DNA of 64,000 nucleotides from a virus. The translations under genes and the position numbers were made by a program. Numbering within the stretch: the stretch's first letter is position 1; every line of letters begins with the position of its first letter. The stretch lies in IMG/VR virus record IMGVR_UViG_3300028829_006673. One strand, given 5' to 3'. The notes beneath the pieces are model-generated. The model was not told the origin of the DNA, searched no databases, and saw only the letters and a program-made list of their open reading frames with translations. Below are positions 897 through 16,496 of the stretch, in pieces.

Positions 897-3389
897 ATGT
901 CAACTGTAAATGTAGATTTCCCACTTTCCCCGGGTGTAGTAACTTCAGAGATTGACAATTCAATTCGTCAAACTGCAGTTCCTCTGGGAAGTGTTGGTTC
1001 CTTGATTGGTAAGTTTTCTTGGGGTCCTGCTATGGTACCAACAATGGTAGCGGATCATCAAGAATTTGAAACTTTATTTGGAGGACCAACAAATAATAAT
1101 TTTATTGAATGGTTTAACGGATATAACTTTTTAGAGTATGGTGAAAATTTAAATGTAGTGCGATTGGTTGATTTTGATAATTCAAGAAATGCTTGTTTTT
1201 CAGGCATCGATACTGTTTTAGTTACAAATGATGAAGACTATACAAACAATTTGATCATTGAAGAGGGTGGTATCAGTGATGGAACAGCCGCTCCTGGTAA
1301 AATTGTAATTGGTGTCAATTCAGCACCAGGACCTTGGATTGCTCGTTATCCAGGTGTCAAAGGTAATTCACTACGTGTTGATACTTGTTTTGCTACTGAT
1401 TATGGACGACAAATTGGAAGATATGACGAAGAAGGTATGGTTCTGGGAAGTATCGCTAATTCAAATCCAACTTGGGTAATTAATCAAATTACATTTAATC
1501 TTATTGCCAGTTCAGCAAATGAGTATGAATGTCAACTTGCTTATCGTGACCTTGTATCAAATAATCATATTGATATTTGGGGAGGAGTGCGAGGTTGGTT
1601 TGAAGATTCAACAGATGTATTAGCAGATGGCGGTCTTCTAAATCAAGAAAAAGTTGTAACATTCTTTGATGGAACAGATTCATATAATATGTTGATTACT
1701 GGAATTAACTCAGCAGCAAAAACATTTAATGCTTATGTAAATCGAAATGATGTAGGTGCGCCTCCACGTGTTTTAGACTTGAGCGCAAATCCTTTACAAT
1801 CATTACATATAAGAACTCGTTCAAAGTATCGTGAATTTTCTTACGGAGCTACACGAAATTCACCAAACAATCTATTGGGTAAAGTTTATTTCTCAAACAA
1901 TACCTATAAGATTCGTGGTGTAAAGACTGCATTTACAAAGCAAATTTCGAAAGGTGATACAATTAGTGTTGCCGGACAAGCAGTAAATGTTTTGAGTGTA
2001 GATAATGATAGAGAACTCACAGTCGGACGTGTTTTGATTGGTGAGTATACAGCAAACACCGCAACTAGCTGGTCAAGAGAATGGCAATATTCTCAGTTCT
2101 TTGCCAGTGAACCAGCTTCATCAAACTACAATCGTGGTGTAAATGGTGATTATACAGCACATTTCAATGACCAAATGCATATTGTAGTGCTTGATGAGCT
2201 TGGTGATATTACAGGAAATAAAGGTGAAGTCCTTGAGACTTATTCACACCTTTCACTTGCTCGAGATGGTAAAGATGACTACGGTGTTCCAACTTATTAT
2301 GTTGGACGAATCAATACAAATTCAGATTGGATTCGTTGGTCAAATCATGCTCTTGCAACACAGCCTCATAACTGGGGTTCAAATGCTTTGGATACAACAT
2401 TTATGACATATAATAAAGTTCTAAATGCTCTTGGTAACAATCTAAGTGCTGCTACCTTTGCTGGTGGTTCAAATGGAACTCAAGTCGATAATGCTGACGT
2501 CATTGAAGCAATTGATTTGTTCCGAGCAAAAGAAACTCATGAGACAGATTTTATGATGACTGGTTGGACTTATGATGTTATGAATCCTTTAAATTATCAT
2601 TTGCTCATTTCAAAAATGATTCAAGTAGCTGAAGAAAGAAAAGATTGTGTAGTATGTGTCTCTGGTGAATATGGAGCAATTTGCCGAGGTAAATCAAATG
2701 CGGATGACATCACTGATAACTATATACAGTGGAGGTCTGCGATTGTACCTAGTTCATATGCGATTATGGATGGAAACTTTAAGTATCAATATGATTCGTA
2801 TAATGATACTTATCGTTGGTTGCCTCTATCTGGAGATATCGCAGGTTTGATGGCGAGAGTTGACATTGAACAAGCACCTTGGTATTCTCCTGCTGGAATG
2901 AAACGAGGTCAAATTAAGAATGTAGTTAAACTTTCTTATAGCCCTTCTCGAGAAAATCGAGATAATTTGTATCTCAATCAAATCAATCCAGTAGTAACAT
3001 TCAAAGGTGAAGGAACTATTCTATACGGAGATAAAACACTTCAGGTAATTCCGAGTGCTTTTGACCGAATCAATGTTCGACGACTTTTCATTCGCTTGAA
3101 AGATTATATTGTTGTTGAAGCAAGAAAGAAATTGTTTGAATTTAACACTCCTTACACAAGGGCCGATTTTAGAAAATTGACCGAACGCTATCTCGATCAG
3201 GTTCGTGTTGATCAAGGTCTTTCTGAGTATCGTGTGATTTGTGATGAAACAAATAACACTAATAAACTTATTGAAGAAAATAAATTTGTGGCTGATATCT
3301 ACATCAAGCCGACATATGTAATTAACTTCATTAAATTAAACTTCACCGCAGTTGGTCAAACTGTAGAGTTTGATGACCTTGGTGTATAA
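897..3389 (+). CDS. gp18: Tail sheath protein (830 aa, with ~220-aa insertion)
   Basis: SPGVVTSEID, IGKFSWGP, ARYPGVKGNSL, WYSPAGMKRGQIKN, LYGDKT, FDRINVRRLF, FEFNTPYTR, YIKPTYVINFIKLNF motifs; SD AGGA upstream. Confidence 0.97.
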   Translation: MSTVNVDFPLSPGVVTSEIDNSIRQTAVPLGSVGSLIGKFSWGPAMVPTMVADHQEFETLFGGPTNNNFIEWFNGYNFLEYGENLNVVRLVDFDNSRNACFSGIDTVLVTNDEDYTNNLIIEEGGISDGTAAPGKIVIGVNSAPGPWIARYPGVKGNSLRVDTCFATDYGRQIGRYDEEGMVLGSIANSNPTWVINQITFNLIASSANEYECQLAYRDLVSNNHIDIWGGVRGWFEDSTDVLADGGLLNQEKVVTFFDGTDSYNMLITGINSAAKTFNAYVNRNDVGAPPRVLDLSANPLQSLHIRTRSKYREFSYGATRNSPNNLLGKVYFSNNTYKIRGVKTAFTKQISKGDTISVAGQAVNVLSVDNDRELTVGRVLIGEYTANTATSWSREWQYSQFFASEPASSNYNRGVNGDYTAHFNDQMHIVVLDELGDITGNKGEVLETYSHLSLARDGKDDYGVPTYYVGRINTNSDWIRWSNHALATQPHNWGSNALDTTFMTYNKVLNALGNNLSAATFAGGSNGTQVDNADVIEAIDLFRAKETHETDFMMTGWTYDVMNPLNYHLLISKMIQVAEERKDCVVCVSGEYGAICRGKSNADDITDNYIQWRSAIVPSSYAIMDGNFKYQYDSYNDTYRWLPLSGDIAGLMARVDIEQAPWYSPAGMKRGQIKNVVKLSYSPSRENRDNLYLNQINPVVTFKGEGTILYGDKTLQVIPSAFDRINVRRLFIRLKDYIVVEARKKLFEFNTPYTRADFRKLTERYLDQVRVDQGLSEYRVICDETNNTNKLIEENKFVADIYIKPTYVINFIKLNFTAVGQTVEFDDLGV

Positions 3390-3400
3390 AAGGAGATAAA

Positions 3401-4096
3401 ATGGCAATTAGTATTTCAACACTTAGAAATAAAATGACTGGTGGTGGAGCACGTCCATCACTCTTTTTTGCTCACGTTTCATTTTCAGACGAATTGAAAA
3501 CTGCACTTGGTAGTGCTGTATCGGATGTTATTGATGGAGGTAATGGTGCGGATGTTTCGTTTTTTATGAAAGGTTCTCAAATACCTGAGAGTACATTAAA
3601 TGCTGTTCCAATCAATTTTCTTGGTCGTGAATTTAAAGTTCCTTCTACAGACCGTGTATTTCAAGACTGGACTGTTCAAGTAATTAACGATGAAGATTAT
3701 CGTATTCGTCACATCTTTGAAGCATGGATTGAGCATGTCACACCAGGAGGAGCTATCTTTGCATCTCAAGCAGCATTTGGTGGTGATGGAAACCAAAGTG
3801 TGTTCTGCAATATGGAAGTTCATCAATTGACAAAAGCCGGAGATATTTCATCATATGGTGGTGGAACTGGAAACGCTACGAATGCGAAATATTACGGATC
3901 TTATTATTTTGTTGATGCTTTTCCAACCAGTGTTTCTCAAATGGATTTAAGCTGGGATACAAAGGATACAATTGAAGAATTCACTGTGACCTTTGCTTAT
4001 CAATATTGGAAGAAGACTCCGGATGTTGTACCAGGTACAGTGAGTCCATTTATTGATACGAAAGCTACTAGTTGGGTTGCGGCAGCGAAAGAATAA
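3401..4096 (+). CDS. gp19: Tail tube protein
   Basis: GGARPSLF, FLGREFKVP, DWTVQVINDEDY, DAFPTSVSQMDLSWD, IEEFTVTFAYQYW motifs; SD AAGGAG. Confidence 0.95.
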   Translation: MAISISTLRNKMTGGGARPSLFFAHVSFSDELKTALGSAVSDVIDGGNGADVSFFMKGSQIPESTLNAVPINFLGREFKVPSTDRVFQDWTVQVINDEDYRIRHIFEAWIEHVTPGGAIFASQAAFGGDGNQSVFCNMEVHQLTKAGDISSYGGGTGNATNAKYYGSYYFVDAFPTSVSQMDLSWDTKDTIEEFTVTFAYQYWKKTPDVVPGTVSPFIDTKATSWVAAAKE

Positions 4097-4217: not shown

Positions 4218-5951
4218 ATGGCTACATTATTTGGATGGAAGTTTGAAGAACAGAAAGACCGTGAAGAAACGAATCTTCAGGCGTTTAGCCCACCTGACTT
4301 TGATGATGGCTCTGCCGTTGTAGGCGCAGCCGGTGTATATGGTACCTATCTAAATTTAGACAATACCTTTACAAACGAATTTGATCTGATGGCTCGTTAT
4401 CGTGCGATGTCAATGCAACCTGAATGTGAGTTAGCAATTGATGAGATTGTTAACGAATCGATTACATCTGGAAGAAAATCATATCCCGTATCCATTGAAC
4501 TTGACTATCTTGAAGACTATTCGGAGATGCTCAAGGAAAAGATTGGTGATGCTTTCTATGAACTAATGGATAAACTGAATTTCAAATACATGGGTTATGA
4601 AATTTTTCGCAAGTGGTTTATTGATGGACGATTATTCTATCAAACATTGATTGATGTCAAGAATCCTCAAAAGGGTATTCTTGAATTGCGACCGATTGAC
4701 CCATTCAAAATCAAGAAAATTCGAGAGAGAAAGAAGACAGAGGAAGAGTCTGCACGCATTGGAATGGATGAAATCAAAATCAATCAGCAATATAATGAAT
4801 ACTATCTATATTCTGAAACTGGTGTTTTTAATCTTGAAACAGAAGGAGATCGAAAGAATGTTCTGAAGATTTCACCCGATTCAATTGTCTATGTGAACAG
4901 CGGTCTGTTGGATGAAAGACGCAAAAATGTAGTTTCATATCTACACAAAGCGTTTCGTCCAATGAACCAAATACGAATGCTGGAAGATGCGGCAATCATT
5001 TATCGATTAAGCCGTGCGCCATCACGAAGAGTGTTCTATGTGGATGTTGGTAACTTGCCAAAAGCAAAAGCCGAACAGTACATGCACTCACTGATGAGCC
5101 AGTATCGTAACAAGATGGTCTATGATAGCAAAACAGGTCAGTTAAGAGATGACCGTAAGTTTCAAGCAATGCTTGAAGACTATTGGATGCCCCGGAGAAA
5201 TGGCTCGGCAACCACAGAGATTGACACAATTCAAGGAAGTGAGGCGAACTTCACTCAGCTGGATGAACTTGAATTCTTTCAGCGACAACTCTTTCGTTCA
5301 CTGAATGTGCCCATCTCAAGAATGCAACCTGAAGCTGGTTTCTCATTAGGACGAGCAAGTGAAATCTCAAGAGAAGAATATAAGTTCATGAGATTCATTG
5401 AAAGATTAAGAACACGATTTTCAAATTTCTTTTTAGAGGTTTTAAAACGACAGCTAATTCTCAAGAACATTGTTTCAATGAAACAGTGGGAAGAAATAGC
5501 TGATTCAATTCATTTTACATTTGACCAAGACAGTAACTTCAATGCTCTGAAAAACCTTGAACTTCTCACTGAAAAGATGAATGTGTTGCGAGATGCGGAA
5601 GAGTATCGTGGAAGATACTTCTCTGCTAACTATATTCGTAAGAACATTCTATCTCTTAGTGATGAAGATATCGATAGAATTGATGAAGAGATTGAAGAAG
5701 AAAAATATGATCCACGATTCGCACCTAAAGAAGGTGACGCTGGCTTCGGTATGGGCAGCATGGGCGGAATGGGAGGCGGTCTCGGTGGTGGCCTCAGAGG
5801 TGACCTCGGTGGTGGATTACCCACAAGTTTTGATGATGGCATCGGAGGAGAACCAAGTGAACCAAGTGGTTCAGGTATGGTAAATGACCTCGGTGGTGGA
5901 AGTGGTGGAGGTCTTGGCGGAACAACAACACCTGGCACAGGAGAATTATAA
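4218..5951 (+). CDS. gp20: Portal vertex protein with Gly-rich C-terminal tail
   Basis: MATLFG start; PECELAIDEIVNE, WFIDGRLFY, SYLHKAFRPMNQIRMLEDAAIIYRLSRAPSRRVFYVDVGNLPKAKAEQY, MLEDYWMPRR motifs. Confidence 0.98.
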   Translation: MATLFGWKFEEQKDREETNLQAFSPPDFDDGSAVVGAAGVYGTYLNLDNTFTNEFDLMARYRAMSMQPECELAIDEIVNESITSGRKSYPVSIELDYLEDYSEMLKEKIGDAFYELMDKLNFKYMGYEIFRKWFIDGRLFYQTLIDVKNPQKGILELRPIDPFKIKKIRERKKTEEESARIGMDEIKINQQYNEYYLYSETGVFNLETEGDRKNVLKISPDSIVYVNSGLLDERRKNVVSYLHKAFRPMNQIRMLEDAAIIYRLSRAPSRRVFYVDVGNLPKAKAEQYMHSLMSQYRNKMVYDSKTGQLRDDRKFQAMLEDYWMPRRNGSATTEIDTIQGSEANFTQLDELEFFQRQLFRSLNVPISRMQPEAGFSLGRASEISREEYKFMRFIERLRTRFSNFFLEVLKRQLILKNIVSMKQWEEIADSIHFTFDQDSNFNALKNLELLTEKMNVLRDAEEYRGRYFSANYIRKNILSLSDEDIDRIDEEIEEEKYDPRFAPKEGDAGFGMGSMGGMGGGLGGGLRGDLGGGLPTSFDDGIGGEPSEPSGSGMVNDLGGGSGGGLGGTTTPGTGEL

Positions 5952-6214
5952 TGGACGCAGAAGAATTAACTAAAAATTTGATCAAGAATATTAACGATGA
6001 AGATTTGGCAGGTGCTAAATCAAACTTTGAAAGACTAATTGCAAATAAACTTTACGACAGACTTGAAGATAAGAAAGAAGGTCTAGGTAAAAAGATTTAT
6101 TCAAAGGATTCAAATCCAGAATCAGATTCAGAACATGAAACTCAAACAACACAAGAGCCATCAGGACATGAGCAAGAAACTACAAGCGCCGAATACGCAA
6201 CTGCGGAGCAGTGA
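5951..6214 (+). CDS. gp67: Prohead core protein gp67-like
   Basis: Small acidic ORF coupled to gp20 by a TAATG overlap; pattern LIKNINDEDLAGAKSNFERLIANKLYDRLEDKK; T4 synteny 20-67-68-21. Confidence 0.75.
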   Translation: MDAEELTKNLIKNINDEDLAGAKSNFERLIANKLYDRLEDKKEGLGKKIYSKDSNPESDSEHETQTTQEPSGHEQETTSAEYATAEQ

Positions 6215-9200
6215 AATTGAACTAATCCTTGAACGTTCTTTTATTGATGATTGGATTGAAGGATCAAAAAAATATGTTGCTGGTGAAAGAGATAAACTTC
6301 TCAAGAAAGCCTGGAATGGAAGTCGCAAGGCTGCCATCAACACGGGAGGAAAACTTTTTCTTCGTTCTCTCGAAAAGTTAGGTGTAAAGTCTGCTGGTGA
6401 AAAAGCAGATTTACTTGATCAGGCAAAGGAGTTAACTATTGCGTATCGTGAAAATCGACATAATGCCAATCAATCAAATGTACAGTTGATGAAAGCGATG
6501 AATAAACTTGGTATATTAGGCGATTATCTTGCAGAAATTACGACAAACAAAAATTTCTTAGAACGAATTGATAATTTACTTCAAAGTCAATTTGATCCAG
6601 AAAGTCAAATTTTACTTAAGCAAGTAAAAAAATCATTTGAGGAACGACAGAAGCATATTACGACCGCTAATAATGCACGTCTAAAATTAATGACTCCTTT
6701 ATTCAAGCCACTTTTTGATGTAGATTTTTTGAATAATGATTTTAAAAGAGATATTCTACCATTAGAGTCCGCAGGTCTTATTCTTGTTGATACACCTCAA
6801 GAAGAAGAAAAAGCTAAAGATGAAATTCAGAAAAAGGGAAGACCAACTCAACTAAAACCAGAACTTGATTGGAAAAAAGATCCAACATCAAGTCATTTTC
6901 GAAGCATCACAGACCTCACTGTAATGAAAAATTGGCTTGAGCAGGACATCAATCAAAAGGATCCTCAAAAAGTTCAAAAGGCAAAAGAATTTACAACTGA
7001 GATTAACTCAAGAACTTCTGGTGCGACAAGAGAACAAGAATCAAATGAATCTTATCAACCAGAATTGTTTGAAGAATTGTTTGAGAATTTTGTAACTAAA
7101 AAAAAAATTAAAATTCTAGAGGCAGAAGATCGATCTGAATATGAAGAAGATGAAGATGGAAACGTAAGCTCAGACGAAGAAGTAGATCAAAATATTGTTT
7201 CTGAACTCAAACAAGAGTATCAAGAATTCTCAAAAAACATAACAGAAGTTCAAGAAGGATTTGAAAATTTCTTAACAAAAGATTTTCCAAAACATGTTGA
7301 AGAGATTGTAAAAAATTGGCGAAAACAAATTTCTAATAACTCAAAAGAAAAAGAAGAGGATAGAGTAGATGATTTATTAACAGTAGCTATTGGTAATTCA
7401 AAACGTGTTGTAAAATTAGCAGATGAAATAGCAAATGAATATCGTATTATTCACGGAAACTTAACTACAAAAAGTTCTGTTCAAAAACTACTTCCAGGAA
7501 TTTCCTCACTTCTTTCCAAAGTAACTGCTCAAGTCAAAAATTTAAAATCAGGCAACAATCTGAATAACAGAATAAGTGCGAACAGTGTTAGGCCTGATGA
7601 TAAAAATCTCTCTCCCTATGTTCAGTCAATACTTCATGAAATTTTTATAATGCATGGAGTAAGCTTGCTTTTATTTGATTCATATGTTCGTGATTCTCTG
7701 AGTGACCTTGATGATTTTTTTACTTCAAACAATACTCCTATTTTAAAGCCAAGCCAAAAAGTAGAAAAAACACCCTTTCGTAAATTATTATCCACTTTAG
7801 AAAAATATAATAAGTTTGTTTCGGAATTTTCTCAGCATACGCAAAATCTTGGCAGTAATAAAGAAGTTCATAAATTGTATAACTTTTTGTATGACCATTT
7901 GTATTTGACAAAAGCAGGAGAAAATCCAGATGATAAAGATGAAGGATTATTTCATGCTGCTGTTTCTCATGCGGCAAATAAAAATAAAAAAGAATCTTAT
8001 GACCATATAAAAGGATTTGCTGATTATCTTGGAAATTTGCTTAAAAGAAATTACCAAGAATTTGATGATTTGTCAAAACAAAAATTAGATAGTCTTGAAG
8101 GTAGAACAGCCTTTGATATAAGAAAGATTGACCGTGATCGAAAAGCGGCGATTTTATCTTGGGGACCTCATCCTGAATTACAGGATAAAAAAGATACTGA
8201 CTTGAATGAGTACGATAGTAAAGATTTTTCTTGGCAAAAATTTATTGAAGATAAACATTTATATTTCAAAAATCCTGAATTATATGGTAAGCAAACACCA
8301 GCCCATGTGATTCGATATATTCAAAGTTTATCTTTAGAACAAAAGCAAAATAAATGGGAGGAATATCTCGCATCAAAAAATAAGGTAAGTACAGAAGAAG
8401 GTGAAAAATCAGTTCCAGTGATTGAACACTTAAAGAATGATAAAATAATTGAATATATTAATGAAAATAAAGTAATTCTCTATACAACTCGAACAACTTG
8501 GGCCAAATTAAGAAATAAATGGAAACAAAAACGTAAAGAAGTTTATAATCATATTGAACGAACAAAATATTATAAATTTGAGGATCTCTTAGGAAAATTG
8601 AATAAAGACATTGCTCCTGTTTCAATAAATCGAAACATCGTTGCTTTTCAAATACCTACTATAAACATATATCATATTGACACTTTATTAAAAAATGAAG
8701 AATCTTCATCAGAAGACCTCAATCTAACAATTGATTTAGATAAACTTGCTTTTATTGCTGATAATTATAGTTTATTCGAAAAGATAGTTAAAGGAAATAA
8801 AAAAAGTATATTCATTTATGAACAAAATGAAGATTTTCAAAATAAAAATTTGCTAAAAGTGTTGACACAGATTGCGACTATACTTGACGCTTTTCAACGA
8901 AGTTATGAACCCGCAAAAAAAATAAGTAAAGTTGAATTGATACAAGACTTAACCAATCGTGAATCAGAGTTTTTTAAAAAATTAGAATCAGATATAAATG
9001 AAAATAAAGTTAAAAAAGAGGTTATAATCCTTACAGCGGATTTTAATAAAATAATAAAGGGTCTTGAAAAACAACAAACATCATCAATGATTAAGCTTAA
9101 TATTTTAGCCACTCTTTTCTATAATCAAGATAACAGAGGAGGAAACACTTTAGTTCAAAATTATGCTAAGGATATTGTATCAGAATCTAGTATTGAATCT

Positions 9201-11156
9201 TCTGATTCTCAAATTCGAATGCTAAAAAGTTCTTCACGGTCAATGAAGAGTAAAGTTGAAGGACGAGATCGGTTCTTAAGTGCTGAACAAAAATGGAGAC
9301 ATCGTAAAGAAACAATCGATAAAATTTTGACTGATAAAGATCAAATTAAGGCGATGGCTAAAGAAAGAGAAGAGAGGAATAAAAATAATGCGTTTTCTTA
9401 TGAGGCACCGAGTTTAGATGAATATAAGTATAAACCTTTGGTTGATTTACTCAAAGATTTCTATACTCATCTTGGTAGAACAACAGCAAGAGGTATCAAA
9501 AGCTTAAGTTCTTATAATAAAGCCTTGTCACGATTTAAAAGATTTCATGATATTCCACAAACCTTCAGTCTTACAAGTTTTCAAAAGGTTATTACTGATG
9601 GTGAATACCCAGACAAATCTAATGATATTCAAGATTACGCTCCAAGAAAAGAATACGATCAAAAACAAAAAGAACTTATTCATAAAAAAGAAGATTTAGA
9701 AAAAATAACCAATTCAGAAACAAATCTCTTGCATAGTTGGGAAGACCTTGATGGTGAATTTAAATCTCTGTATGACCTTGATAAGGGAGAGAAGGAAGCG
9801 AATCAAAGAATTTGGGATACTATTCTAAAACTTCAAAGACAGAATGAGGATTTTAAACAATTGAATCCAATCAATCGTAAATCTTTTATTTCAATTTTGA
9901 TTCCTTTATTGAAAGCCCTGTTAGAATATTCAAGGCAATCAACTACTTTATTATCTTTTGCTGACAAATTTATGACTCTTCATTCAAAAGATATAATGCC
10001 TTTGCTAAGATATCGACAAAGTGATCCGAATCATGAGCAAAGTCCATTGAAAAGTAGGTCAGCGATTTCAACTGAAAAATGGGACAATTATAATAGTATA
10101 ATGAGAACATTGATAGGTGGAAGTGATTCGAATGGAATCAAAAGTAAGAATAGTATAGTTGAAAAATTAGGAAAAGAACCAAACGATAATACAGGTTCTT
10201 TTCATCCAGATGAATACCTAGAATACTTAAACTCGGATGAAGTTAATTTAGGGTTCTTTAAAGATATTGACGTTGATTTATCAAGTGGCAATTATAAACA
10301 ACTTGACTTAGAAAAACTGAACAAAAACATTGACGACATTGAATTTTTCTTTGACAAAATGGATCCGGATGCTGAACTTTCAATAAAGGAAAAAGAAAAT
10401 GAAAGCGAGGATGAATATGAGGAAAGAAAAGAAAAGATCATAAAGCTGATCAAAACTTATCACAACAAATATGAAGATGAAATTCTTCTCGTAAAGAATT
10501 TTATTTCAAAAATAAAAGGTAAAGATATTGAAATGCCTTTAGAAAAATTTTATCAAAGTGATCCATATTATAAAAAGGTAGGAACTTATATAAGAGATGA
10601 AATAAAAGGACTGAGTAATCATCAAAAAGATTCTTTAATTATTATTTGCTGTTCGGTTGCGGAAATATTATCAATAAAAAATCATGACCAAAGAGATGAC
10701 AACCAAAAAACTGTAAAATTAAGTGAAGAAAAAATAAAAAGTATTCTTCAAGATTTTGTTCATCGACTAGTGGGCAAAGATAAAGGAGATACTGTAAATG
10801 ATGCGAAACATATTCTCAAAGAATATTTTCGAAAATATAAAGCTCAAGTTTCTGTCAATGAATCATTTGCTTCAATTCGTTGGCGTAAGAATCCAAGGAC
10901 GCATTTGAACAAAGTTACAATGGTTTGTAAAAATAATGAATACAAAAAAAGTCTAAATAGAGAAATAAACATAGCCGGACAAAAGGTCAAAGAAACCATG
11001 TGTTTACCAAAAAGCGCAAAGCCTGCGGTTGATAAAGCAAAAGATAGAAAGTCTTCTCTTAAAAGATGGAAGACGGTTCGTTCAAATCCAGGCAAAATGA
11101 AAATTGCTAAAATGAAAAGAAATTTGACACGCAAATATTCAAAAACTTTAAGGTAG
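6135..11156 (+). CDS. Giant (1673 aa) K/E-rich helical protein with C-terminal gp68-like prohead core domain; start uncertain
   Basis: Occupies the gp68 position. The last ~100 aa are basic, with an R/K-rich terminus like gp68 (KSSLKRWKTVRSNPGKMKIAKMKRNLTRKYSKTLR). The rest has no motif I recognise. Confidence 0.75.
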   Translation: MKLKQHKSHQDMSKKLQAPNTQLRSSEIELILERSFIDDWIEGSKKYVAGERDKLLKKAWNGSRKAAINTGGKLFLRSLEKLGVKSAGEKADLLDQAKELTIAYRENRHNANQSNVQLMKAMNKLGILGDYLAEITTNKNFLERIDNLLQSQFDPESQILLKQVKKSFEERQKHITTANNARLKLMTPLFKPLFDVDFLNNDFKRDILPLESAGLILVDTPQEEEKAKDEIQKKGRPTQLKPELDWKKDPTSSHFRSITDLTVMKNWLEQDINQKDPQKVQKAKEFTTEINSRTSGATREQESNESYQPELFEELFENFVTKKKIKILEAEDRSEYEEDEDGNVSSDEEVDQNIVSELKQEYQEFSKNITEVQEGFENFLTKDFPKHVEEIVKNWRKQISNNSKEKEEDRVDDLLTVAIGNSKRVVKLADEIANEYRIIHGNLTTKSSVQKLLPGISSLLSKVTAQVKNLKSGNNLNNRISANSVRPDDKNLSPYVQSILHEIFIMHGVSLLLFDSYVRDSLSDLDDFFTSNNTPILKPSQKVEKTPFRKLLSTLEKYNKFVSEFSQHTQNLGSNKEVHKLYNFLYDHLYLTKAGENPDDKDEGLFHAAVSHAANKNKKESYDHIKGFADYLGNLLKRNYQEFDDLSKQKLDSLEGRTAFDIRKIDRDRKAAILSWGPHPELQDKKDTDLNEYDSKDFSWQKFIEDKHLYFKNPELYGKQTPAHVIRYIQSLSLEQKQNKWEEYLASKNKVSTEEGEKSVPVIEHLKNDKIIEYINENKVILYTTRTTWAKLRNKWKQKRKEVYNHIERTKYYKFEDLLGKLNKDIAPVSINRNIVAFQIPTINIYHIDTLLKNEESSSEDLNLTIDLDKLAFIADNYSLFEKIVKGNKKSIFIYEQNEDFQNKNLLKVLTQIATILDAFQRSYEPAKKISKVELIQDLTNRESEFFKKLESDINENKVKKEVIILTADFNKIIKGLEKQQTSSMIKLNILATLFYNQDNRGGNTLVQNYAKDIVSESSIESSDSQIRMLKSSSRSMKSKVEGRDRFLSAEQKWRHRKETIDKILTDKDQIKAMAKEREERNKNNAFSYEAPSLDEYKYKPLVDLLKDFYTHLGRTTARGIKSLSSYNKALSRFKRFHDIPQTFSLTSFQKVITDGEYPDKSNDIQDYAPRKEYDQKQKELIHKKEDLEKITNSETNLLHSWEDLDGEFKSLYDLDKGEKEANQRIWDTILKLQRQNEDFKQLNPINRKSFISILIPLLKALLEYSRQSTTLLSFADKFMTLHSKDIMPLLRYRQSDPNHEQSPLKSRSAISTEKWDNYNSIMRTLIGGSDSNGIKSKNSIVEKLGKEPNDNTGSFHPDEYLEYLNSDEVNLGFFKDIDVDLSSGNYKQLDLEKLNKNIDDIEFFFDKMDPDAELSIKEKENESEDEYEERKEKIIKLIKTYHNKYEDEILLVKNFISKIKGKDIEMPLEKFYQSDPYYKKVGTYIRDEIKGLSNHQKDSLIIICCSVAEILSIKNHDQRDDNQKTVKLSEEKIKSILQDFVHRLVGKDKGDTVNDAKHILKEYFRKYKAQVSVNESFASIRWRKNPRTHLNKVTMVCKNNEYKKSLNREINIAGQKVKETMCLPKSAKPAVDKAKDRKSSLKRWKTVRSNPGKMKIAKMKRNLTRKYSKTLR

Positions 11157-11163
11157 AGGACAA

Positions 11164-12033
11164 ATGAAATTACTTGTTGAAAGCTCAGAAGATATCAAGA
11201 GTGTGATTGAAGAAAATGCCGATGGTGAAAAATCACATTTCCTTTCTGGCATCTTCATGCAAGCAGAACAAACCAACAAGAATGGTAGAATCTATACTTT
11301 ACCGATTCTTGAAAAAGAAACAAATCGTTACATTGACGAAAAAGTCAAAACGCAACGAGCATTGGGTGAGTTGAATCACCCTGCAGATCCTACTGTAAAT
11401 CTTGAGCGAGTTTCACACATGGTGACGGAACTTGCAGTGGATGGAAATAATATTATGGGAAAAGCAAAAGTGCTTAACACTCCATGTGGGAATATAGTCC
11501 GTGGTCTTGTAGACGGTGGCGTTAAGCTTGGAGTATCTTCAAGAGGTGTTGGTTCTCTTCATCAAAGAGATGGTGTTTCACTGGTCGGGGAAGACTTTCA
11601 ATTGTCCGCAATTGATGTTGTCTATGACCCTTCAGCACCAAAAGCTTTTGTTGAAATGGTAATGGAATCTGTTGATTGGTTATGGAACGATGAAACAAAA
11701 TCTTATGTAAAGCAGCAAGCTTCAATTCAAGAAGAAAAGTCCTTCACAAACAATCCAATGCCTTTCCTCGATACCTTAGTTGAACTGAAAAGTGAAATCA
11801 AAGGTATGCAAGATAAGGTAATGATGGTGATGAACGAGAATCGAGAGATTCGCAAACTTGTTGAGAATCAAGCTTCTGTGCGTGTGAAGAAGAAAGAACA
11901 AGAACTAGACCGTTTGATTGAAGATACAAAAGACACTATCGAATTGAGTGTCAAGGAAAAGTTACGAGAGAAGCGTGAAGCAGAAACTCTTAAAATCTTT
12001 GACCATTTTTTGAAAGAAGTATCAAAAAAATAA
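11164..12033 (+). CDS. gp21: Prohead maturation protease
   Basis: FLSGIFMQAE, NKNGRIY, ALGELNHP, VSHMVTEL, GKAKVLNTPCG, LGVSSRGVGSL, DVVYDPSAPKAFV motifs; SD GAGGA. Confidence 0.97.
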   Translation: MKLLVESSEDIKSVIEENADGEKSHFLSGIFMQAEQTNKNGRIYTLPILEKETNRYIDEKVKTQRALGELNHPADPTVNLERVSHMVTELAVDGNNIMGKAKVLNTPCGNIVRGLVDGGVKLGVSSRGVGSLHQRDGVSLVGEDFQLSAIDVVYDPSAPKAFVEMVMESVDWLWNDETKSYVKQQASIQEEKSFTNNPMPFLDTLVELKSEIKGMQDKVMMVMNENREIRKLVENQASVRVKKKEQELDRLIEDTKDTIELSVKEKLREKREAETLKIFDHFLKEVSKK

Positions 12034-12038
12034 ATTTT

Positions 12039-12046
12039 TATAAATA
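12039..12046 (+). promoter_or_regulatory. Late promoter TATAAATA
   Basis: Exact T4 gp55 consensus, 48 nt upstream of the gp22 start. Confidence 0.8.
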
Positions 12047-12093
12047 ATCTATAAACGGACTTTAACTGTTAACTATTAAGCAAAGGAATTCTT

Positions 12094-13407
12094 ATGGCCT
12101 CTAACACAGAACTTAAGAGTCAGATTTCCGATTTCATGAAAGATAAATTCGGAGATGAAATCAAAGACTCAACTGACTTAAGTACTGTTGTTGATGAAGA
12201 TAAAGTCGATTCAACAGTCAGTGCTTTGATGAAAAAATTGAAGATTACTCCTTCTGCGACCGAAGTTACAATCAAAAAAGGAACCACAATCAGCACTCTT
12301 GCTACTCAACTTGCAGATGAGCAAGACAAGGATGATGATAGTGATGAGGATACTGTAACTGAAGCACGTCGACGGAGAATGAAGAAGAAAGAAGAAGAAC
12401 TCGAAGAAGCTCGTCGAAAGAAGAAGAAAGAAGAAGACGAGGATCTGAAAAAGAAACTTGATGAAGCTTCAAAGAAAAAGGATGATGACGATGATGACGA
12501 AGACGAAGATGATGAAAAGGAAATGGACTTTGAAGACATTGAAGACAAGGATAATGACGATGATGAAAAAGACGAAGATGATGACAAGAAAGAAGCCAAG
12601 AAGAAAGCTGATAAAAAGAAGGACGTTAAGGAACAGATTGAATCTCTGTTCGCACAAGACGAAACTCTTACAGAGGCTTTCAAAGAAAAAGCAGCAATTC
12701 TATTCGAAACCGTCTTGAATAAAAGAATTGACGAAGAAGTGGACGAGATTCGAGAATCTCTCGAAGAGCAATACAATGAAAATCTCAAGGAAGCGGTAGA
12801 GGCTCATGCTGAACAACTCCATGAAGAATTGGATAACTTGACCACTAAGATTGATGAATACTTGACCTATGTAGCCGAAGAGTGGATGAAAGAGAACGAA
12901 TTGGCAATTGAAAAAGGTGTTCGTGCAGAAATCACTGAAAACTTCATTTATGGATTGAGAAATCTCTTTGCTGAAAACTACATTGACGTTCCAGAAGGCA
13001 AGGAAAATCTTGTAGAATCTCTTGAAGAGCAGACCGAAGAACTTCAAGAACAAGTGAATTCTCACCTCAAGCGCAATATGAGGTTGAAGAAACAACTGCA
13101 GAATGAGCGAAGGAAGAACATCTTGTTTGAAAATTCCTCTGACCTGACAATGGCAGAAAGAGATCAACTCGAGCAGTTGACTGAATCTGTTGACTTTGAA
13201 AGCGAAGATGAATTCGAAAAGAAGATTCAGATCATTAAAGAACATTATTTTTCAAATGACTCTGAAACAACCGTATCAAAGAAAAAAGATATGACTGAGG
13301 AAGAACAGTTTGGTTCTCAAACATTGCTTGAGGATTATCATGCTGAACCTGCCTCGATAACGGCGATTGACGTATATAAAAACGCAATTTCAAAATTTGT
13401 TCGCTAA
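12094..13407 (+). CDS. gp22: Prohead core scaffolding protein
   Basis: Acidic region followed by FKEKAAILFE, IDEYLTYVAEEWMKENELAIEKGVRAEITENFIYGLRNLFAENYIDVPEGK, LTESVDFESEDEF. Confidence 0.95.
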   Translation: MASNTELKSQISDFMKDKFGDEIKDSTDLSTVVDEDKVDSTVSALMKKLKITPSATEVTIKKGTTISTLATQLADEQDKDDDSDEDTVTEARRRRMKKKEEELEEARRKKKKEEDEDLKKKLDEASKKKDDDDDDEDEDDEKEMDFEDIEDKDNDDDEKDEDDDKKEAKKKADKKKDVKEQIESLFAQDETLTEAFKEKAAILFETVLNKRIDEEVDEIRESLEEQYNENLKEAVEAHAEQLHEELDNLTTKIDEYLTYVAEEWMKENELAIEKGVRAEITENFIYGLRNLFAENYIDVPEGKENLVESLEEQTEELQEQVNSHLKRNMRLKKQLQNERRKNILFENSSDLTMAERDQLEQLTESVDFESEDEFEKKIQIIKEHYFSNDSETTVSKKKDMTEEEQFGSQTLLEDYHAEPASITAIDVYKNAISKFVR

Positions 13408-13426
13408 CTTTGAAAAAGTGTAAATA

Positions 13427-13434
13427 TATAAATA
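13427..13434 (+). promoter_or_regulatory. Late promoter TATAAATA
   Basis: Exact consensus upstream of the gp23 SD (AAGGAG). Confidence 0.85.
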
Positions 13435-13477
13435 AGAAAAAACGAAAGTATTTCAATTTTTTAACAAAGGAGAAGAT

Positions 13478-14980
13478 ATGATTCTTAACGAGCAAGTTCA
13501 AGCAAAGTGGAAACCGATTCTTGAACATGAAGAATTACCTCAAATCGACGACAACTATAAGAAAAGCGTAACCGCTATTCTCTTGGAGAACCAAGAAAAA
13601 ATGATGCGAGAGCAAGCAATTCAGCAACAAGGTTCTGGATTGTTCTTGAGCGAGAATCCAAATGGTGGACCGATGGGTTCTAGTATGGATACATCCAACT
13701 TTGCTTCAGGAGTTGGAGATGGTTTACAGGCTACAGTGCCTTACAACGGACACACCTTTGGTGCTGCACCTGATGCTTCCGGTGCTGTTCAGTGGGTTGA
13801 CCCTGTATTGATTTCTCTTGTAAGACGAACCATGCCTAAATTGTTGGCATATGATGTTTGTGGTGTTCAGCCAATGACATCTCCTGTTGGTTTGATCTTT
13901 GCAATGCGTTCACAATACGGATCACCTGGTGTTGTTCCTGGTACAGGAATGGATGGATTTGATGATACACTATTGGGAACAAACGAAGCCTTCTTCGGTG
14001 AAGCAAACACTGCTTACACAGGAACAGGAACTCATGCTGACCTGAAAAATCCTACACAAGTCAATGCGCTTACAGGAACAGATGATCCAGTAGAAGTATT
14101 TTTTAATGGGAATATGAATCATGGTAAAGGAATGCCAACCAGCTGGGGTGAGAACATGGGACGACCTAACGGACCAGAATTCCCAGAAATGTCATTCAGT
14201 ATTGAGAAGATGTCTGTATCAGCCGTAACACGTAAGTTGCGTGGTCAGTATACTCTTGAGATGGCTCAAGACCTGAAAGCAACTCACGGATTGAATGCTG
14301 AAAGCGAACTCGCAAACATTCTCTCAAATGAGATTCTTGCTGAAGTAAACCGCCAAGTAATTCGCACCATCTACACTGTAGCAAAGCCTGGTGCCCAGAA
14401 CACAACTACCGCTCATGAATTTGACCTTTTGGTTGATTCAAACGGACGATGGTCAGTTGAGAAGTTCAAAGGTTTGATGTTCCAATTGGAAGTAGAAGCA
14501 AACCAAATTGCACGACAAACACGACGTGGAAAAGGAAATGTCATTCTTTGTTCCGCTGATGTTGCTTCCGCACTTCAGATGGCAGGAATGCTTGACTACT
14601 CCTCAAACATGAGAGTGTCTTTGAAGACTGACGAAACTGACAACTTGTTTGCCGGTATTCTGAATGGTCAATTCAAAGTATACATCGATCCTTATCTGCC
14701 TGTCAATGCTAAGAAAGCTATGGTATGTGTTGGATACAAAGGAACATCTCCTTATGATGCCGGTGTATTCTACTGCCCATATCAGCCGCTACAAATGCTG
14801 AAGGCACAAGATCCACGAACCTTCACTCCAATCATTGGATTCATGAGCCGAGATGCAATGGTAGCTAATCCATTCTCTCAAGTGGATCGAAATGGTTATC
14901 CAGTGCGTATCCCAGATGACGGAATTACTCCTAATCTGAACGTATACTATCGCAAGATGAAGGTTGTTAACTTGACCTGA
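13478..14980 (+). CDS. gp23: Major capsid protein
   Basis: KWKPILEH, TAILLENQE, PVLISLVRRTMPKLLAYDVCGVQPMTSP, EMSFSIEK, YTLEMAQDLKATHGL, GRWSVEKFKGL, YDAGVFYCPY motifs; predicted gp21 cleavage at LSE59. Confidence 0.99.
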   Translation: MILNEQVQAKWKPILEHEELPQIDDNYKKSVTAILLENQEKMMREQAIQQQGSGLFLSENPNGGPMGSSMDTSNFASGVGDGLQATVPYNGHTFGAAPDASGAVQWVDPVLISLVRRTMPKLLAYDVCGVQPMTSPVGLIFAMRSQYGSPGVVPGTGMDGFDDTLLGTNEAFFGEANTAYTGTGTHADLKNPTQVNALTGTDDPVEVFFNGNMNHGKGMPTSWGENMGRPNGPEFPEMSFSIEKMSVSAVTRKLRGQYTLEMAQDLKATHGLNAESELANILSNEILAEVNRQVIRTIYTVAKPGAQNTTTAHEFDLLVDSNGRWSVEKFKGLMFQLEVEANQIARQTRRGKGNVILCSADVASALQMAGMLDYSSNMRVSLKTDETDNLFAGILNGQFKVYIDPYLPVNAKKAMVCVGYKGTSPYDAGVFYCPYQPLQMLKAQDPRTFTPIIGFMSRDAMVANPFSQVDRNGYPVRIPDDGITPNLNVYYRKMKVVNLT

Positions 14981-15002
14981 TTTTTACGAACAGTGAAAGA
15001 AG

Positions 15003-15034
15003 AAAGCGTGGGTGTAAAAACTCACGCTTTTTTT
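15003..15034. terminator. Rho-independent terminator, probably bidirectional, after gp23
   Basis: Stem AAAGCGTGGGT/ACTCACGCTTT (one G-U pair), loop GTAAAA, T7 tract downstream and a short A tract upstream; lies between convergent genes. Confidence 0.88.
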
Positions 15035-15054
15035 AGGCCTTGGATTTTGAAGGG

Positions 15055-15555
15055 TTAATCTTCAATGAAAAAAAACTCACCTGTCCATTCTTCATCAATT
15101 ATACGAGGAGCAGTTTTTGATTGACGTGCTTGTAGAATCAAATCATTTGATTCTTTTGCGAAGTGACCATCCGCCCATGAAATTGTAACATGAGCAGGTC
15201 CTGGTTTTTGATTGGGTCCTGAATCTCTCTTTTGTAATATCTCACCATTTTCAAAGACCATTTCTGAAACTAAAAATGCTTGAATAAAATAATTCTGATA
15301 AAGTTTATTCATTTTCACTTTAACTTTTTGCCCTATATATCTTTTATATGATTCAGCAACTTTCATTTCAGGCTTGTAAGTGATTGTGATATGATAGAGA
15401 GGTTTGCCTTTTTCGTTTGTTGGATATTTTTTGAAATGAGCATATCTTTCAAAAAGTCTTTTGGATATTTGTGTTGAAGCAACAACAGCAAAATACCCAT
15501 TCACTCTCTGTTCTTCATTAAGTAAAGTATTGATATCTGAGATTAGCTTATACAT
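15055..15555 (-). CDS. 2H phosphoesterase (2',3'-cyclic phosphodiesterase / Acb1-like fold) with capsid-targeting-like leader
   Basis: Two HxT motifs (YHITI, AHVTI) about 65 aa apart; the HVTISWADGHFAKESNDLI pattern resembles tRNA-ligase CPD-type 2H enzymes; N-terminus MYKLISDINTLLNEE. Confidence 0.75.
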   Translation of the reverse strand: MYKLISDINTLLNEEQRVNGYFAVVASTQISKRLFERYAHFKKYPTNEKGKPLYHITITYKPEMKVAESYKRYIGQKVKVKMNKLYQNYFIQAFLVSEMVFENGEILQKRDSGPNQKPGPAHVTISWADGHFAKESNDLILQARQSKTAPRIIDEEWTGEFFFIED

Positions 15556-15575
15556 GATTCTCTGTTTTATAAATT

Positions 15576-15610
15576 GATAAATAATACAAATGAGATATCT
15601 ATTATTTATT
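15576..15610. promoter_or_regulatory. Pair of late-type promoter boxes: GATAAATA on + at 15576, AATAAATA on - at 15603-15610
   Basis: Both boxes lie in the 77-nt gap between divergent genes 15555(-) and 15633(+). Confidence 0.5.
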
Positions 15611-15632
15611 CCATCCTAAGCGCAAAGGGAAC

Positions 15633-16244
15633 ATGCATCAGAATATCAAAGAGTATAATGTAATCAATAGCATTATCAATGGACGAAGACTTCAACCAGT
15701 CGAGAGTGTTTCTCCGGGTAAAGGTCCACAACTTCTTCTCGAGAATGAGCAATTAGAAGCTGATTCCGTAAGAAAGCAAGAAGAACTAAAAAAGAAAAAA
15801 GAAGAAACGAAAAGAGCAGAATTAGACGCAATTGAGGCTCGTAAAAAAGAATTGACTTCAGAAGATTGTCCTCACACTGATGGTCATGATCACAATGAAG
15901 ATTACTGTGCGATGGTCAAATCACAACTTCAAAAATCGGGTCAAATCATTGGTATGATTCAATCAATGCTACCGAAAGATGCTGACCTTCCTGATGAAAT
16001 CAAAGAGAAAATTTCATCCGCAATGGGAAGTTTAGCAGGTGCTGCTTCTGCTATGCGTGATGCGGCATCAAAACAAGATGGTGATAAAGAAAAAGAAGAC
16101 CGACCGCAGCAACAAAGTTCAGCACCTTCAGGTGAAAGAAAAATCACAGCATTTAATGTTCGCCCTGTTAGTGCTTCACCTCAAAGAATGGGTGGTTTCA
16201 GTTTCAATCCACCTAGTTCACAATCAAATTATGACTACGAATGA
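15633..16244 (+). CDS. Putative internal head protein
   Basis: LLLE/QLEA protease-site-like motifs followed by a charged coiled coil. AMVKSQLQK...LPDEIKEKISSA resembles the MAKxQL...LPxWVQxKI motif of T4-like head-associated proteins. SD AAGGGA. Confidence 0.55.
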   Translation: MHQNIKEYNVINSIINGRRLQPVESVSPGKGPQLLLENEQLEADSVRKQEELKKKKEETKRAELDAIEARKKELTSEDCPHTDGHDHNEDYCAMVKSQLQKSGQIIGMIQSMLPKDADLPDEIKEKISSAMGSLAGAASAMRDAASKQDGDKEKEDRPQQQSSAPSGERKITAFNVRPVSASPQRMGGFSFNPPSSQSNYDYE

Positions 16245-16256
16245 TAGGAGATAATT

Positions 16257-16496
16257 ATGGCTGGTTCACCAAATTCTATTAACAAAAGATACGCTCAAGA
16301 AAATTGGTTTGGAAATCCGTTAGGTATTCCTGCTTACGATAACATGGTCAATGAATATGACGCTTATTGGAATCTAGCAAACACAATGTATTATCTTGGG
16401 GAACCAGATCCGCCAATTAACGCAAATCTGGTAGCAAGACTTGAAATGACTTATGATGCGAATCGTAATATGCTTACAATGAAAAGAGTAAAATAA
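16257..16496 (+). CDS. Small conserved phage hypothetical (probably virion-associated)
   Basis: SD AGGAG; pattern IPAYD...Y...VARLEMTYD.N.N...KR seen in small phage structural proteins; abuts the next ORF (TAA then ATG). Confidence 0.6.
   Translation: MAGSPNSINKRYAQENWFGNPLGIPAYDNMVNEYDAYWNLANTMYYLGEPDPPINANLVARLEMTYDANRNMLTMKRVK

Follow-up and report, generated by a model that had tools for sequence, protein, structure and literature searches.

We examined a 64,000-nucleotide (nt) stretch of DNA, hereafter the window, which corresponds to IMG/VR virus record IMGVR_UViG_3300028829_006673 and comes from an uncultured marine T4-like phage whose late module lies on the + strand. Between the gene for a gp67-like prohead core protein and that for a gp21-type prohead protease, this module carries a giant open reading frame (ORF) listed at 1673 amino acids (aa). 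The order of genes in T4, namely gp20, gp67, gp68 (141 aa), gp21, gp22 and gp23, matches that of the window, and the giant ORF therefore occupies the slot of gp68, just where an earlier reading of this DNA (hereafter the original prediction) had put it. That prediction had taken the ORF for a gp68-like, essential core protein fused to one or two large effectors, which would be packaged in the head, freed by the prohead protease and ejected into the host. We describe here the architecture of the giant ORF, its variation among relatives and the explanations that these features allow (coordinates in Table 1).

The giant ORF likely starts at 6168 (M12 of the listed translation, whose numbering is kept below) rather than at 6135, because the equivalent of M12 is the first residue in each of its three homologues from metagenomes (99, 90 and 77% identity; 1654-1690 aa). 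Counted from 6168, its start is overlapped over 47 nt by the 3' end of the gp67-like gene. Similar overlaps are found in relatives (~44 nt in loci L020 and L023, ~65 nt in L016), and the two ORFs are related by a +1 frame in the window as in these three loci. The whole giant ORF is covered, without any frame-breaking difference, by contigs from independent marine metagenome studies; one variant carries an in-frame 24-nt deletion at 7730. A few short contigs of a metatranscriptome library (run X20) match parts of it, which is not proof of transcription. As judged from the metagenome contigs and from the substitution rates given below, the giant ORF is a real, fast-evolving gene.

Table 1. Giant ORF of the window, its parts, and the surrounding head and tail genes (an arrow marks a candidate cleavage position)
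Feature	Position	Strand	Remark
Giant ORF, 1673 aa as listed	6135-11156	+	gp68 slot; 1662 aa and 194 kDa if the start is 6168
N-terminal leader M12-E33, ending L30-I-L-E33↓R34	6168-6233	+	putative propeptide with a candidate site for the prohead protease
N-terminal motif RSFIDDWIEG, residues 34-43	6234-6263	+	conserved across family members
First module, residues 34-329, 34 kDa, pI 8.9	6234-7121	+	positional match to the separate 223-261-aa ORF of relatives
Joint 1, residues 309-332, PELFEELFENF...KILE329↓AED	7059-7130	+	acidic run next; invariant in 4 close homologues
Hypervariable body, residues 330-1576, 146 kDa, pI 6.3	7122-10862	+	predicted almost all alpha-helical
Joint 2, V1574-N-E1576↓S1577	10854-10865	+	candidate protease site before constant domain
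Basic C-terminal domain, residues 1577-1673, 97 aa, pI 11.2	10863-11153	+	conserved family-wide
Sheath gene	897-3389	+	PHROG scan
Tube gene	3401-4096	+	PHROG scan
Portal gene	4218-5951	+	PHROG scan
gp67-like prohead core gene, 87 aa	5951-6214	+	phrog_1064 'prohead', E 3e-5
gp21-type prohead protease	11164-12033	+	phrog_207, E 2e-70; start 8 nt past the giant ORF stop
gp22-type scaffold gene	12094-13407	+	phrog_237 being the PHROG of gp22-type scaffolds
gp23-type capsid protein gene	13478-14980	+	PHROG scan

Comparison with relatives shows that the protein is built from parts in a set order: a leader ending in LILE33 and followed by RSFIDDWIEG, a module of ~300 aa, a helical body of ~1,250 aa, and a basic C-terminal domain of 97 aa. 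The three sites that the original prediction had flagged as resembling prohead-protease sites (LILE33↓R, FEELFENF...ILE329↓AED and VNE1576↓S) are all present where it had located them, and its boundaries at ~33, ~330 and ~1576 turned out to be conserved joints of the family. In family members with the first module, leaders of ~20-85 aa end in (L/I/V)xE and are followed by RSFIDD; in the window protein (P0001), leader and motif read ILERSFIDDWIEG. Twelve of the 14 residues of this N-terminal motif are identical in P0001 and in a 627-aa relative (P0021), the remainder of both proteins being unalignable, and motifs of the RSFIDDWIEG type were further seen in L016, L020, L023_223, P0011 and P0016. 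It is only this shared motif that links the first module of the window protein to the separate ORF of relatives, and neither P0001 nor P0011 was retrieved by hidden Markov models (HMMs) built from the mid-size modules. A leader (M12-E33) that ends in ILE and has equivalents at the ORF starts of relatives corresponds to the anatomy of T4-type prohead-protease substrates. No likeness of the N-terminus to the T4 capsid targeting sequence was found by eye, BLAST or PHROG comparison, this sequence being too short for statistics.

The first joint within the protein comprises L311FEELFENF319 and I327-L-E329↓A330-E-D; in P0001, PELFEELFENFV stands before KILE329↓AED and is matched by YNPEVFSNILNEYV of P0011, a giant protein of another type. 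In relatives with two ORFs in the slot, the stand-alone second ORF starts with a short leader ending in LLIE↓D (M..LLIE↓D), ILLE↓D, VLHE↓ED or VINE↓V, and fused forms read IILE↓D or YLLE↓G at an internal joint that aligns with these leaders. The stretch around residue 330, which had struck the original prediction as leader-like, thereby matches the leader that opens a separate ORF in relatives. At the second joint, Glu is found in 23/23 aligned rows, six residues before the RW of RWR(R/K)NPR. Three residues ahead of the cut, 20/23 rows have L or I, the window has V (its 77% homologue I) and two rows have T. It is from residues 1574-1576 onward that BLASTP aligns the window protein with two relatives, P0025 and P0027.

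These three particular joints are conserved beyond chance across otherwise unalignable relatives, whereas the abundance of sites is not above it. The giant ORF contains 19 [LI]xE tripeptides as against 24.6 +/- 4.3 in shuffled sequences (1.14 per 100 aa, z -1.3), so that neither enrichment nor depletion is significant. Densities per 100 aa are 1.1-2.2 in the family (none in L025_261, a first-module ORF), 4.1 in the scaffold protein, 3.8 in the protease and 3.55 in T4 gp68 (z 2.5). Given this low density compared with proteins that are diced, cleavage would leave large pieces, not small peptides. The capsid protein of the window retains FLSE↓N at the position of the T4 maturation cleavage, the counterpart of LTE↓A in T4, and the specificity of the gp21-type protease is therefore probably T4-like.

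The last ~100 aa, set apart by the original prediction, form a separately conserved domain of 97 aa that begins at VNE↓S, with a core reading IRWRKNPRT...C...C...KDRK...KRW...SNPGKM...SKTLR. This C-terminal domain is near-identical in four close homologues, the 77% one included (one substitution), and is the only part common to all other family members, at 46-64% identity. Its profile retrieved only 23 clusters among 1.84e9 cluster representatives, always with the domain at the extreme C-terminus, in proteins of 403-787, 1377 and 1657-1716 aa as well as in fragments. The AlphaFold2 model of the domain shows a small beta-sheet followed by two helices, with a predicted local distance difference test score (pLDDT) of 50-78, and a sequence-profile search of the PDB returned only TonB (E 0.6). 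As far as the libraries searched can tell, both the domain and the family are undescribed, and they appear confined to uncultured marine phages.

The original prediction had, moreover, recognized gp68 in this tail; we found no HMM or profile similarity to gp68, the very outcome that it had named as speaking against its reading. Scanning the PHROG HMMs at E<=10 with the whole tail or with residues 1500-1673 retrieved none of the gp68 families (phrog_1049, 14114, 3503, 33445), whereas T4 gp68 itself, used as a control, matched phrog_1049, 14114 and 3503. BLASTP of the tail against T4 gp68 gave E 0.07 in a single comparison, and an HMM of seven diverse C-terminal domains gave E>1 against both T4 gp68 and L037_216, a true gp68 homologue from a more distant relative (phrog_33445 2e-30, phrog_1049 7e-8). 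Aligning the 23 C-terminal domains with 121 gp68 sequences using hhalign gave a probability of 2.5-6% (~3% without L037, 6% with it), and a six-frame search of four family-holding records with phrog_3503 found nothing at E<=10, the positive control L037 scoring 7e-23. The C-terminal domain is hence, by these comparisons, a positional and compositional analogue of gp68 only, homology being unsupported by profiles.

The locus of this true homologue (L037:96-746; protease 47% identical) encodes a 216-aa protein that ends in ...KKRKSMGLS, like ...KRRKALGLS in T4; its N-terminal half is acidic, and it contains a Cys-x9-Cys segment; an extra 88-aa ORF lies between its gene and gp21. It was considered as a bridge from the C-terminal domain to gp68, which looks plausible by eye; hhalign gave only 0.3-6%.

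Nothing above noise was found for the whole protein, five pieces of it and its relatives in scans of Pfam, PHROGs and NCBIfam; among 50,697 phage records neither tblastn nor megablast found a match, and an ESM Atlas search by features returned no usable one. The protein has no transmembrane segment and, by self-comparison, no internal repeats. It is not a scaffold protein of the gp22 type either, as indicated by the lack of a PHROG match, isoelectric points (pI) of 6.3 for the body and 8.8 for the whole protein, and a background density of [LI]xE. Segment-wise structure prediction and fold comparison, which the original prediction had recommended, yielded no fold match. The two AlphaFold2 models, of low confidence, consist of helices almost throughout; their mean pLDDT is 41.8 (residues 12-1010) and 56.8 (residues 1011-1673). 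Foldseek against BFVD and PDB, VIA-align in its wide mode and the Atlas searched by shape returned only generic long helices and coiled coils, and we treated the best scores (E 0.0096, Z<=6.0, TM<=0.24) as uninformative. The large effectors that had been foreseen are thus not borne out, since neither sequence nor fold revealed an effector or enzyme domain. Nothing supports an enzyme and, with models of such low confidence, a novel fold may be present.

The survey of slot lengths in related phages, also suggested by the original prediction, was made on 40 IMG/VR loci reached through the protease, by reading the content between the gp67-like gene and gp21. Where the protease is 97-99% identical to that of the window, the slot holds a single ORF of 1668-1737 aa. 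At 73% it holds a single ORF of 623-677 aa, at 65-71% two ORFs of 223-261 and 471-496 aa, the second of which carries the C-terminal domain, and at ~50% small ORFs only, without this domain. Giant slot ORFs among relatives measure 1377-1737 aa, and clustering at 50% sorted them into four clusters: P0006 (P0001 and relatives), P0016 and P0020 (both related to P0011), and P0027 (distinct, 1377 aa). In L023-L028, a separate ORF follows the gp67-like gene. The 623-aa protein of L020 aligns end to end with L023_223 (42% identity) and then L023_471 (36%), so that the same modules exist in nature both as one fused protein and as two separate ones.

A further comparison is with locus L009. Both flanks are 89-91% identical to the window at the DNA level (window 4738-6092 and 10875-17173), the protease being 97% identical, while no DNA similarity is found across 6092-10875, homology ending inside the gp67-like gene. 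The slot ORF of L009, P0011 (1722 aa), shares with P0001 only the C-terminal domain at 59% identity and, towards the N-terminus, a weak similarity that includes both motifs (23% identity over 374 aa, E 0.008); hhalign of P0001-type and P0011-type alignments reported only the C-terminal domain. On this comparison of loci, phages whose capsid genes are near-identical have swapped the body as a cassette.

Window 28555-28582 and L009:2932-2959 agree in 27 of 28 nt. In the window this stretch lies at the start of a 1400-aa baseplate/fibre-like gene (N-terminus MEELALGTSNPY...), and in L009 its counterpart is internal to P0011 (...QELALGTSNPF...), without a counterpart in the giant ORF of the window. 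This could be a recombination microhomology or a common short motif.

Splitting of the body from its tail was observed in two lineages. In L007 and L008, short contigs from two samples, a shared 2-nt deletion relative to L009 creates a TGA stop in the giant ORF; an ATG follows 52 nt past this stop, with an AAGGA box 7 nt before it, and the 128-aa C-terminal part becomes an ORF of its own. L009 reads AAGAA where L007 and L008 have the AAGGA box (L007:250-330 vs L009:6085-6165). In L052:1-660, of a lineage related to the 1377-aa P0027, the C-terminal domain lies on a stop-bounded ORF of <=185 aa, while position 74 is the end of an ORF that lies upstream in a different frame. From these two lineages it follows that a covalent link between body and tail is dispensable, at least in those populations. 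The 128-aa stand-alone gene (P0009) was considered as an ancestral small form and rejected, given that L009 reveals it to be a split of a 1722-aa ORF by the 2-nt deletion; P0024, another candidate for a stand-alone ancestor, proved to be a contig-end fragment.

The AT-richness noted in the original prediction is real, the GC content of the giant ORF being 0.306 against 0.36-0.435 in its neighbours; it bears no sign of recent acquisition. At third codon positions the giant ORF has the GC content of the sheath and tube genes (0.20), and in every family member the ORF is richer in AT than the locus around it. A foreign origin inferred from low GC was rejected on these two grounds, from which we conclude that the bias reflects a protein composition rich in K, L, E, S, D, I and N and not recent import. 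Between the giant ORF and its 90% homologue, the ratio of nonsynonymous to synonymous substitution rates (dN/dS) is 0.505, with no block clearly >1, compared with 0.086 for portal, 0.099 for sheath and 0.053 for protease. Along the protein, the pI changes from 8.9 in the first module to 6.3 in the body and 11.2 in the C-terminal domain.

Exact T4-type late-promoter boxes (TATAAATA) are found at 12039-12046 and 13427-13434, ~50 nt upstream of the scaffold and capsid genes. Window-wide, the 8 matches are not significant against the 5.3 expected. The gp67-like gene, the giant ORF and the protease gene have no such box in front of them and therefore look co-transcribed from further upstream. Two further features of the region were recorded. 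The C-terminus of the portal (5750-5951) is a Gly-rich low-complexity tail of ~65 aa (GMGSMGGMGGGLGGGLRGDLGGGL...GGSGGGLGG), beyond the portal PHROG match (residues 1-512). A 166-aa ORF on the - strand (15055-15555), without a PHROG match at E<=0.01, begins with MYKLISDINTLLNE↓E, an (L/I)xE-ended leader in the style of those of the giant-ORF family.

We regard as the best explanation, with about even confidence, that the giant ORF encodes a modular protein of the prohead core or the head interior, whose conserved ends would address it to the core and whose joints would be cut at maturation. The two ends would most likely act as address or anchor, placing the protein in the scaffolding core, for instance if the charges of the basic tail pair with those of the acidic tails of the scaffold and gp67-like proteins. 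The adjacent gp21-type protease would most likely cut the conserved (L/I/V)xE joints during head maturation. The modules would thereby come apart, and large fragments would stay in the head, from which they may be carried along with the DNA when a host is infected. That the protein enters the prohead, is cut at the three joints and is then retained or ejected is what we infer from the gene and its relatives. Several observations weigh against this explanation. At a gp68-like copy number (~240), a protein of 194 kDa would overfill the head, so its copy number must be low. [LI]xE sites occur at chance frequency, only their position arguing for processing. No significant similarity to gp68, to the T4 internal proteins or to the T4 capsid targeting sequence was found, nor any enzymatic or known fold, the models being of low confidence. 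All family members come from uncultured phages, tblastn having found no match in the 50,697 phage records. Finally, the split variants in two lineages, in which body and C-terminal domain are separate, weaken a pure model in which an anchor carries its cargo.

The protein could instead act in assembly only, as a core or scaffold accessory functionally equivalent to gp68 and gp67 that helps to shape or size the prohead and is then degraded and expelled, which we hold to be possible, if rather improbable. Its sequence would drift fast because only helical character and terminal contacts matter, and a high dN/dS fits such weak constraint. The gp68 slot and the basic tail (pI 11.2, compared with 12.0 for the last 70 aa of T4 gp68) point the same way, as does the predicted all-helical, coiled-coil- or tape-measure-like structure with no enzyme domain; T4 gp68, a non-essential core protein, is itself degraded to peptides (PMC9958956), which also contradicts the original view of the carrier as an essential one. 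However, with 1.1 [LI]xE per 100 aa, the giant protein is far from the 3.5-4.1 of proteins known or expected to be diced. A body whose length ranges from ~300 to ~1,600 aa is also hard to reconcile with a part that determines shape or size, the more so as bodies are unalignable though capsid, scaffold, portal and protease genes are ~90-97% identical, and as rough CheckV estimates of genome size are alike (~170-190 kb).

It is the low density of sites, leaving large fragments that would survive, that also speaks for a body packaged and injected as an effector of host takeover or anti-defence, delivered with the DNA like IPI or Alt, with swaps reflecting an arms race. We consider this unlikely, even though the joints are conserved and of protease type and the combination of hypervariability with conserved terminal signals parallels the internal-protein locus of T-even phages (PMC3012670). 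Pfam, PHROGs, NCBIfam, the PDB sequence search, Foldseek, VIA-align and Atlas revealed no catalytic or binding domain and no known fold. A dN/dS of 0.5 without any block clearly >1 fits relaxed constraint equally well, and a helical protein of 146 kDa would need to pass the tail tube unfolded or extended. Far less probable still is a location outside the head interior, as an assembly factor absent from the virion or as an outer protein of the neck or portal whose gene happens to lie within the head operon. The absence of a late promoter TATAAATA directly upstream, unlike for the gp22-like and gp23-like genes, would agree with this, but the ORF sits tightly, with overlap, among core genes of the same strand that flank it on both sides, its leader and (L/I)xE architecture is typical of prohead-protease substrates, and T4 genes 20, 67, 68 and 21 likewise cluster.

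Set beside known systems, the preferred explanation, a core-addressed and processed head protein, finds partial parallels. T4 gp68 (phrog_1049/14114/3503/33445; PF26830 as listed for homologues) has the same place in the operon, between gp67 and gp21, a strongly basic C-terminal region of ~70-100 aa after (L/I)xE motifs, and a weak colinear run of (I/L)NE, KDRK, NP(A/G) and basic tail. Yet the giant protein is 12x longer (the gp68 family measures ~130-220 aa) and has 1.1 [LI]xE per 100 aa against 3.5 in gp68, T4 gp68 lacks the two conserved Cys and the RWRRNPR motif of the C-terminal domain, and the true homologue L037_216 has no match to this domain. The T4 internal proteins IPI, IPII and IPIII likewise combine a diverse body with short conserved addressing sequences (PMC3012670, PMC9958956); T-even internal proteins are highly diverse, with only the targeting sequence conserved (PMC3012670). 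They also resemble the giant protein in their short N-terminal leader ending in (L/I)xE and their T4-type prohead protease. These proteins are head-packaged and possibly injected, as the giant protein may be. They are of 8-20 kDa and encoded elsewhere in the genome, whereas the giant protein, of 194 kDa, is encoded in the morphogenesis operon, has a second conserved module at its C-terminus and is without likeness to the targeting sequence.

Another precedent is T4 Alt, a large protein loaded into the core with its N-terminus trimmed by gp21 (PMC9958956). This ADP-ribosyltransferase, at ~40 copies, indicates that big cargo at low copy number is feasible; it has a recognizable enzyme domain, whereas none was found in the giant protein. 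In the giant phages SPN3US and phiKZ, the ejection and inner-body proteins form large masses inside the head and are cut by a T4-like prohead protease, and their genes lie near head-assembly genes (PMC7411985, PMC5694885). Those proteins are many and paralogous, unlike the one swappable gene in a T4-like genome of ~170-190 kb considered here. How proteins are addressed to T4-type scaffolding cores is still called mysterious in a review (PMC9958956).

Core-targeted, protease-processed and polymorphic head proteins are hence known from T4, where core cargo is small or, like Alt, single-domain; what is new is a much larger variant within the morphogenesis operon and with two conserved termini. 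The relatives offer a natural experiment in which one capsid machinery (protease 97% identical) accepts bodies of ~300 to ~1,600 aa that share only two short terminal modules, and in which the modules occur naturally both fused and split. At its boldest, and we are doubtful of this extension, the gp68 slot would be a plug-in bay for giant head cargo, in which a conserved N-terminal tag and the basic C-terminal domain, both with a protease site beside them, let unrelated bodies of ~150 kDa and more be swapped, loaded, released by the protease and delivered to the host; the internal-protein locus of T-even phages would be dwarfed by such a polymorphic system of injected proteins. Were the protein only a scaffold accessory, a core component could vary five-fold in length while the shell genes stay unchanged. 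If it is packaged, the N-terminal motif and the C-terminal domain would be candidate portable loading tags for very large cargo, and the swappable body would be a hitherto unrecognized hotspot at which abundant marine phages and their hosts are in conflict.

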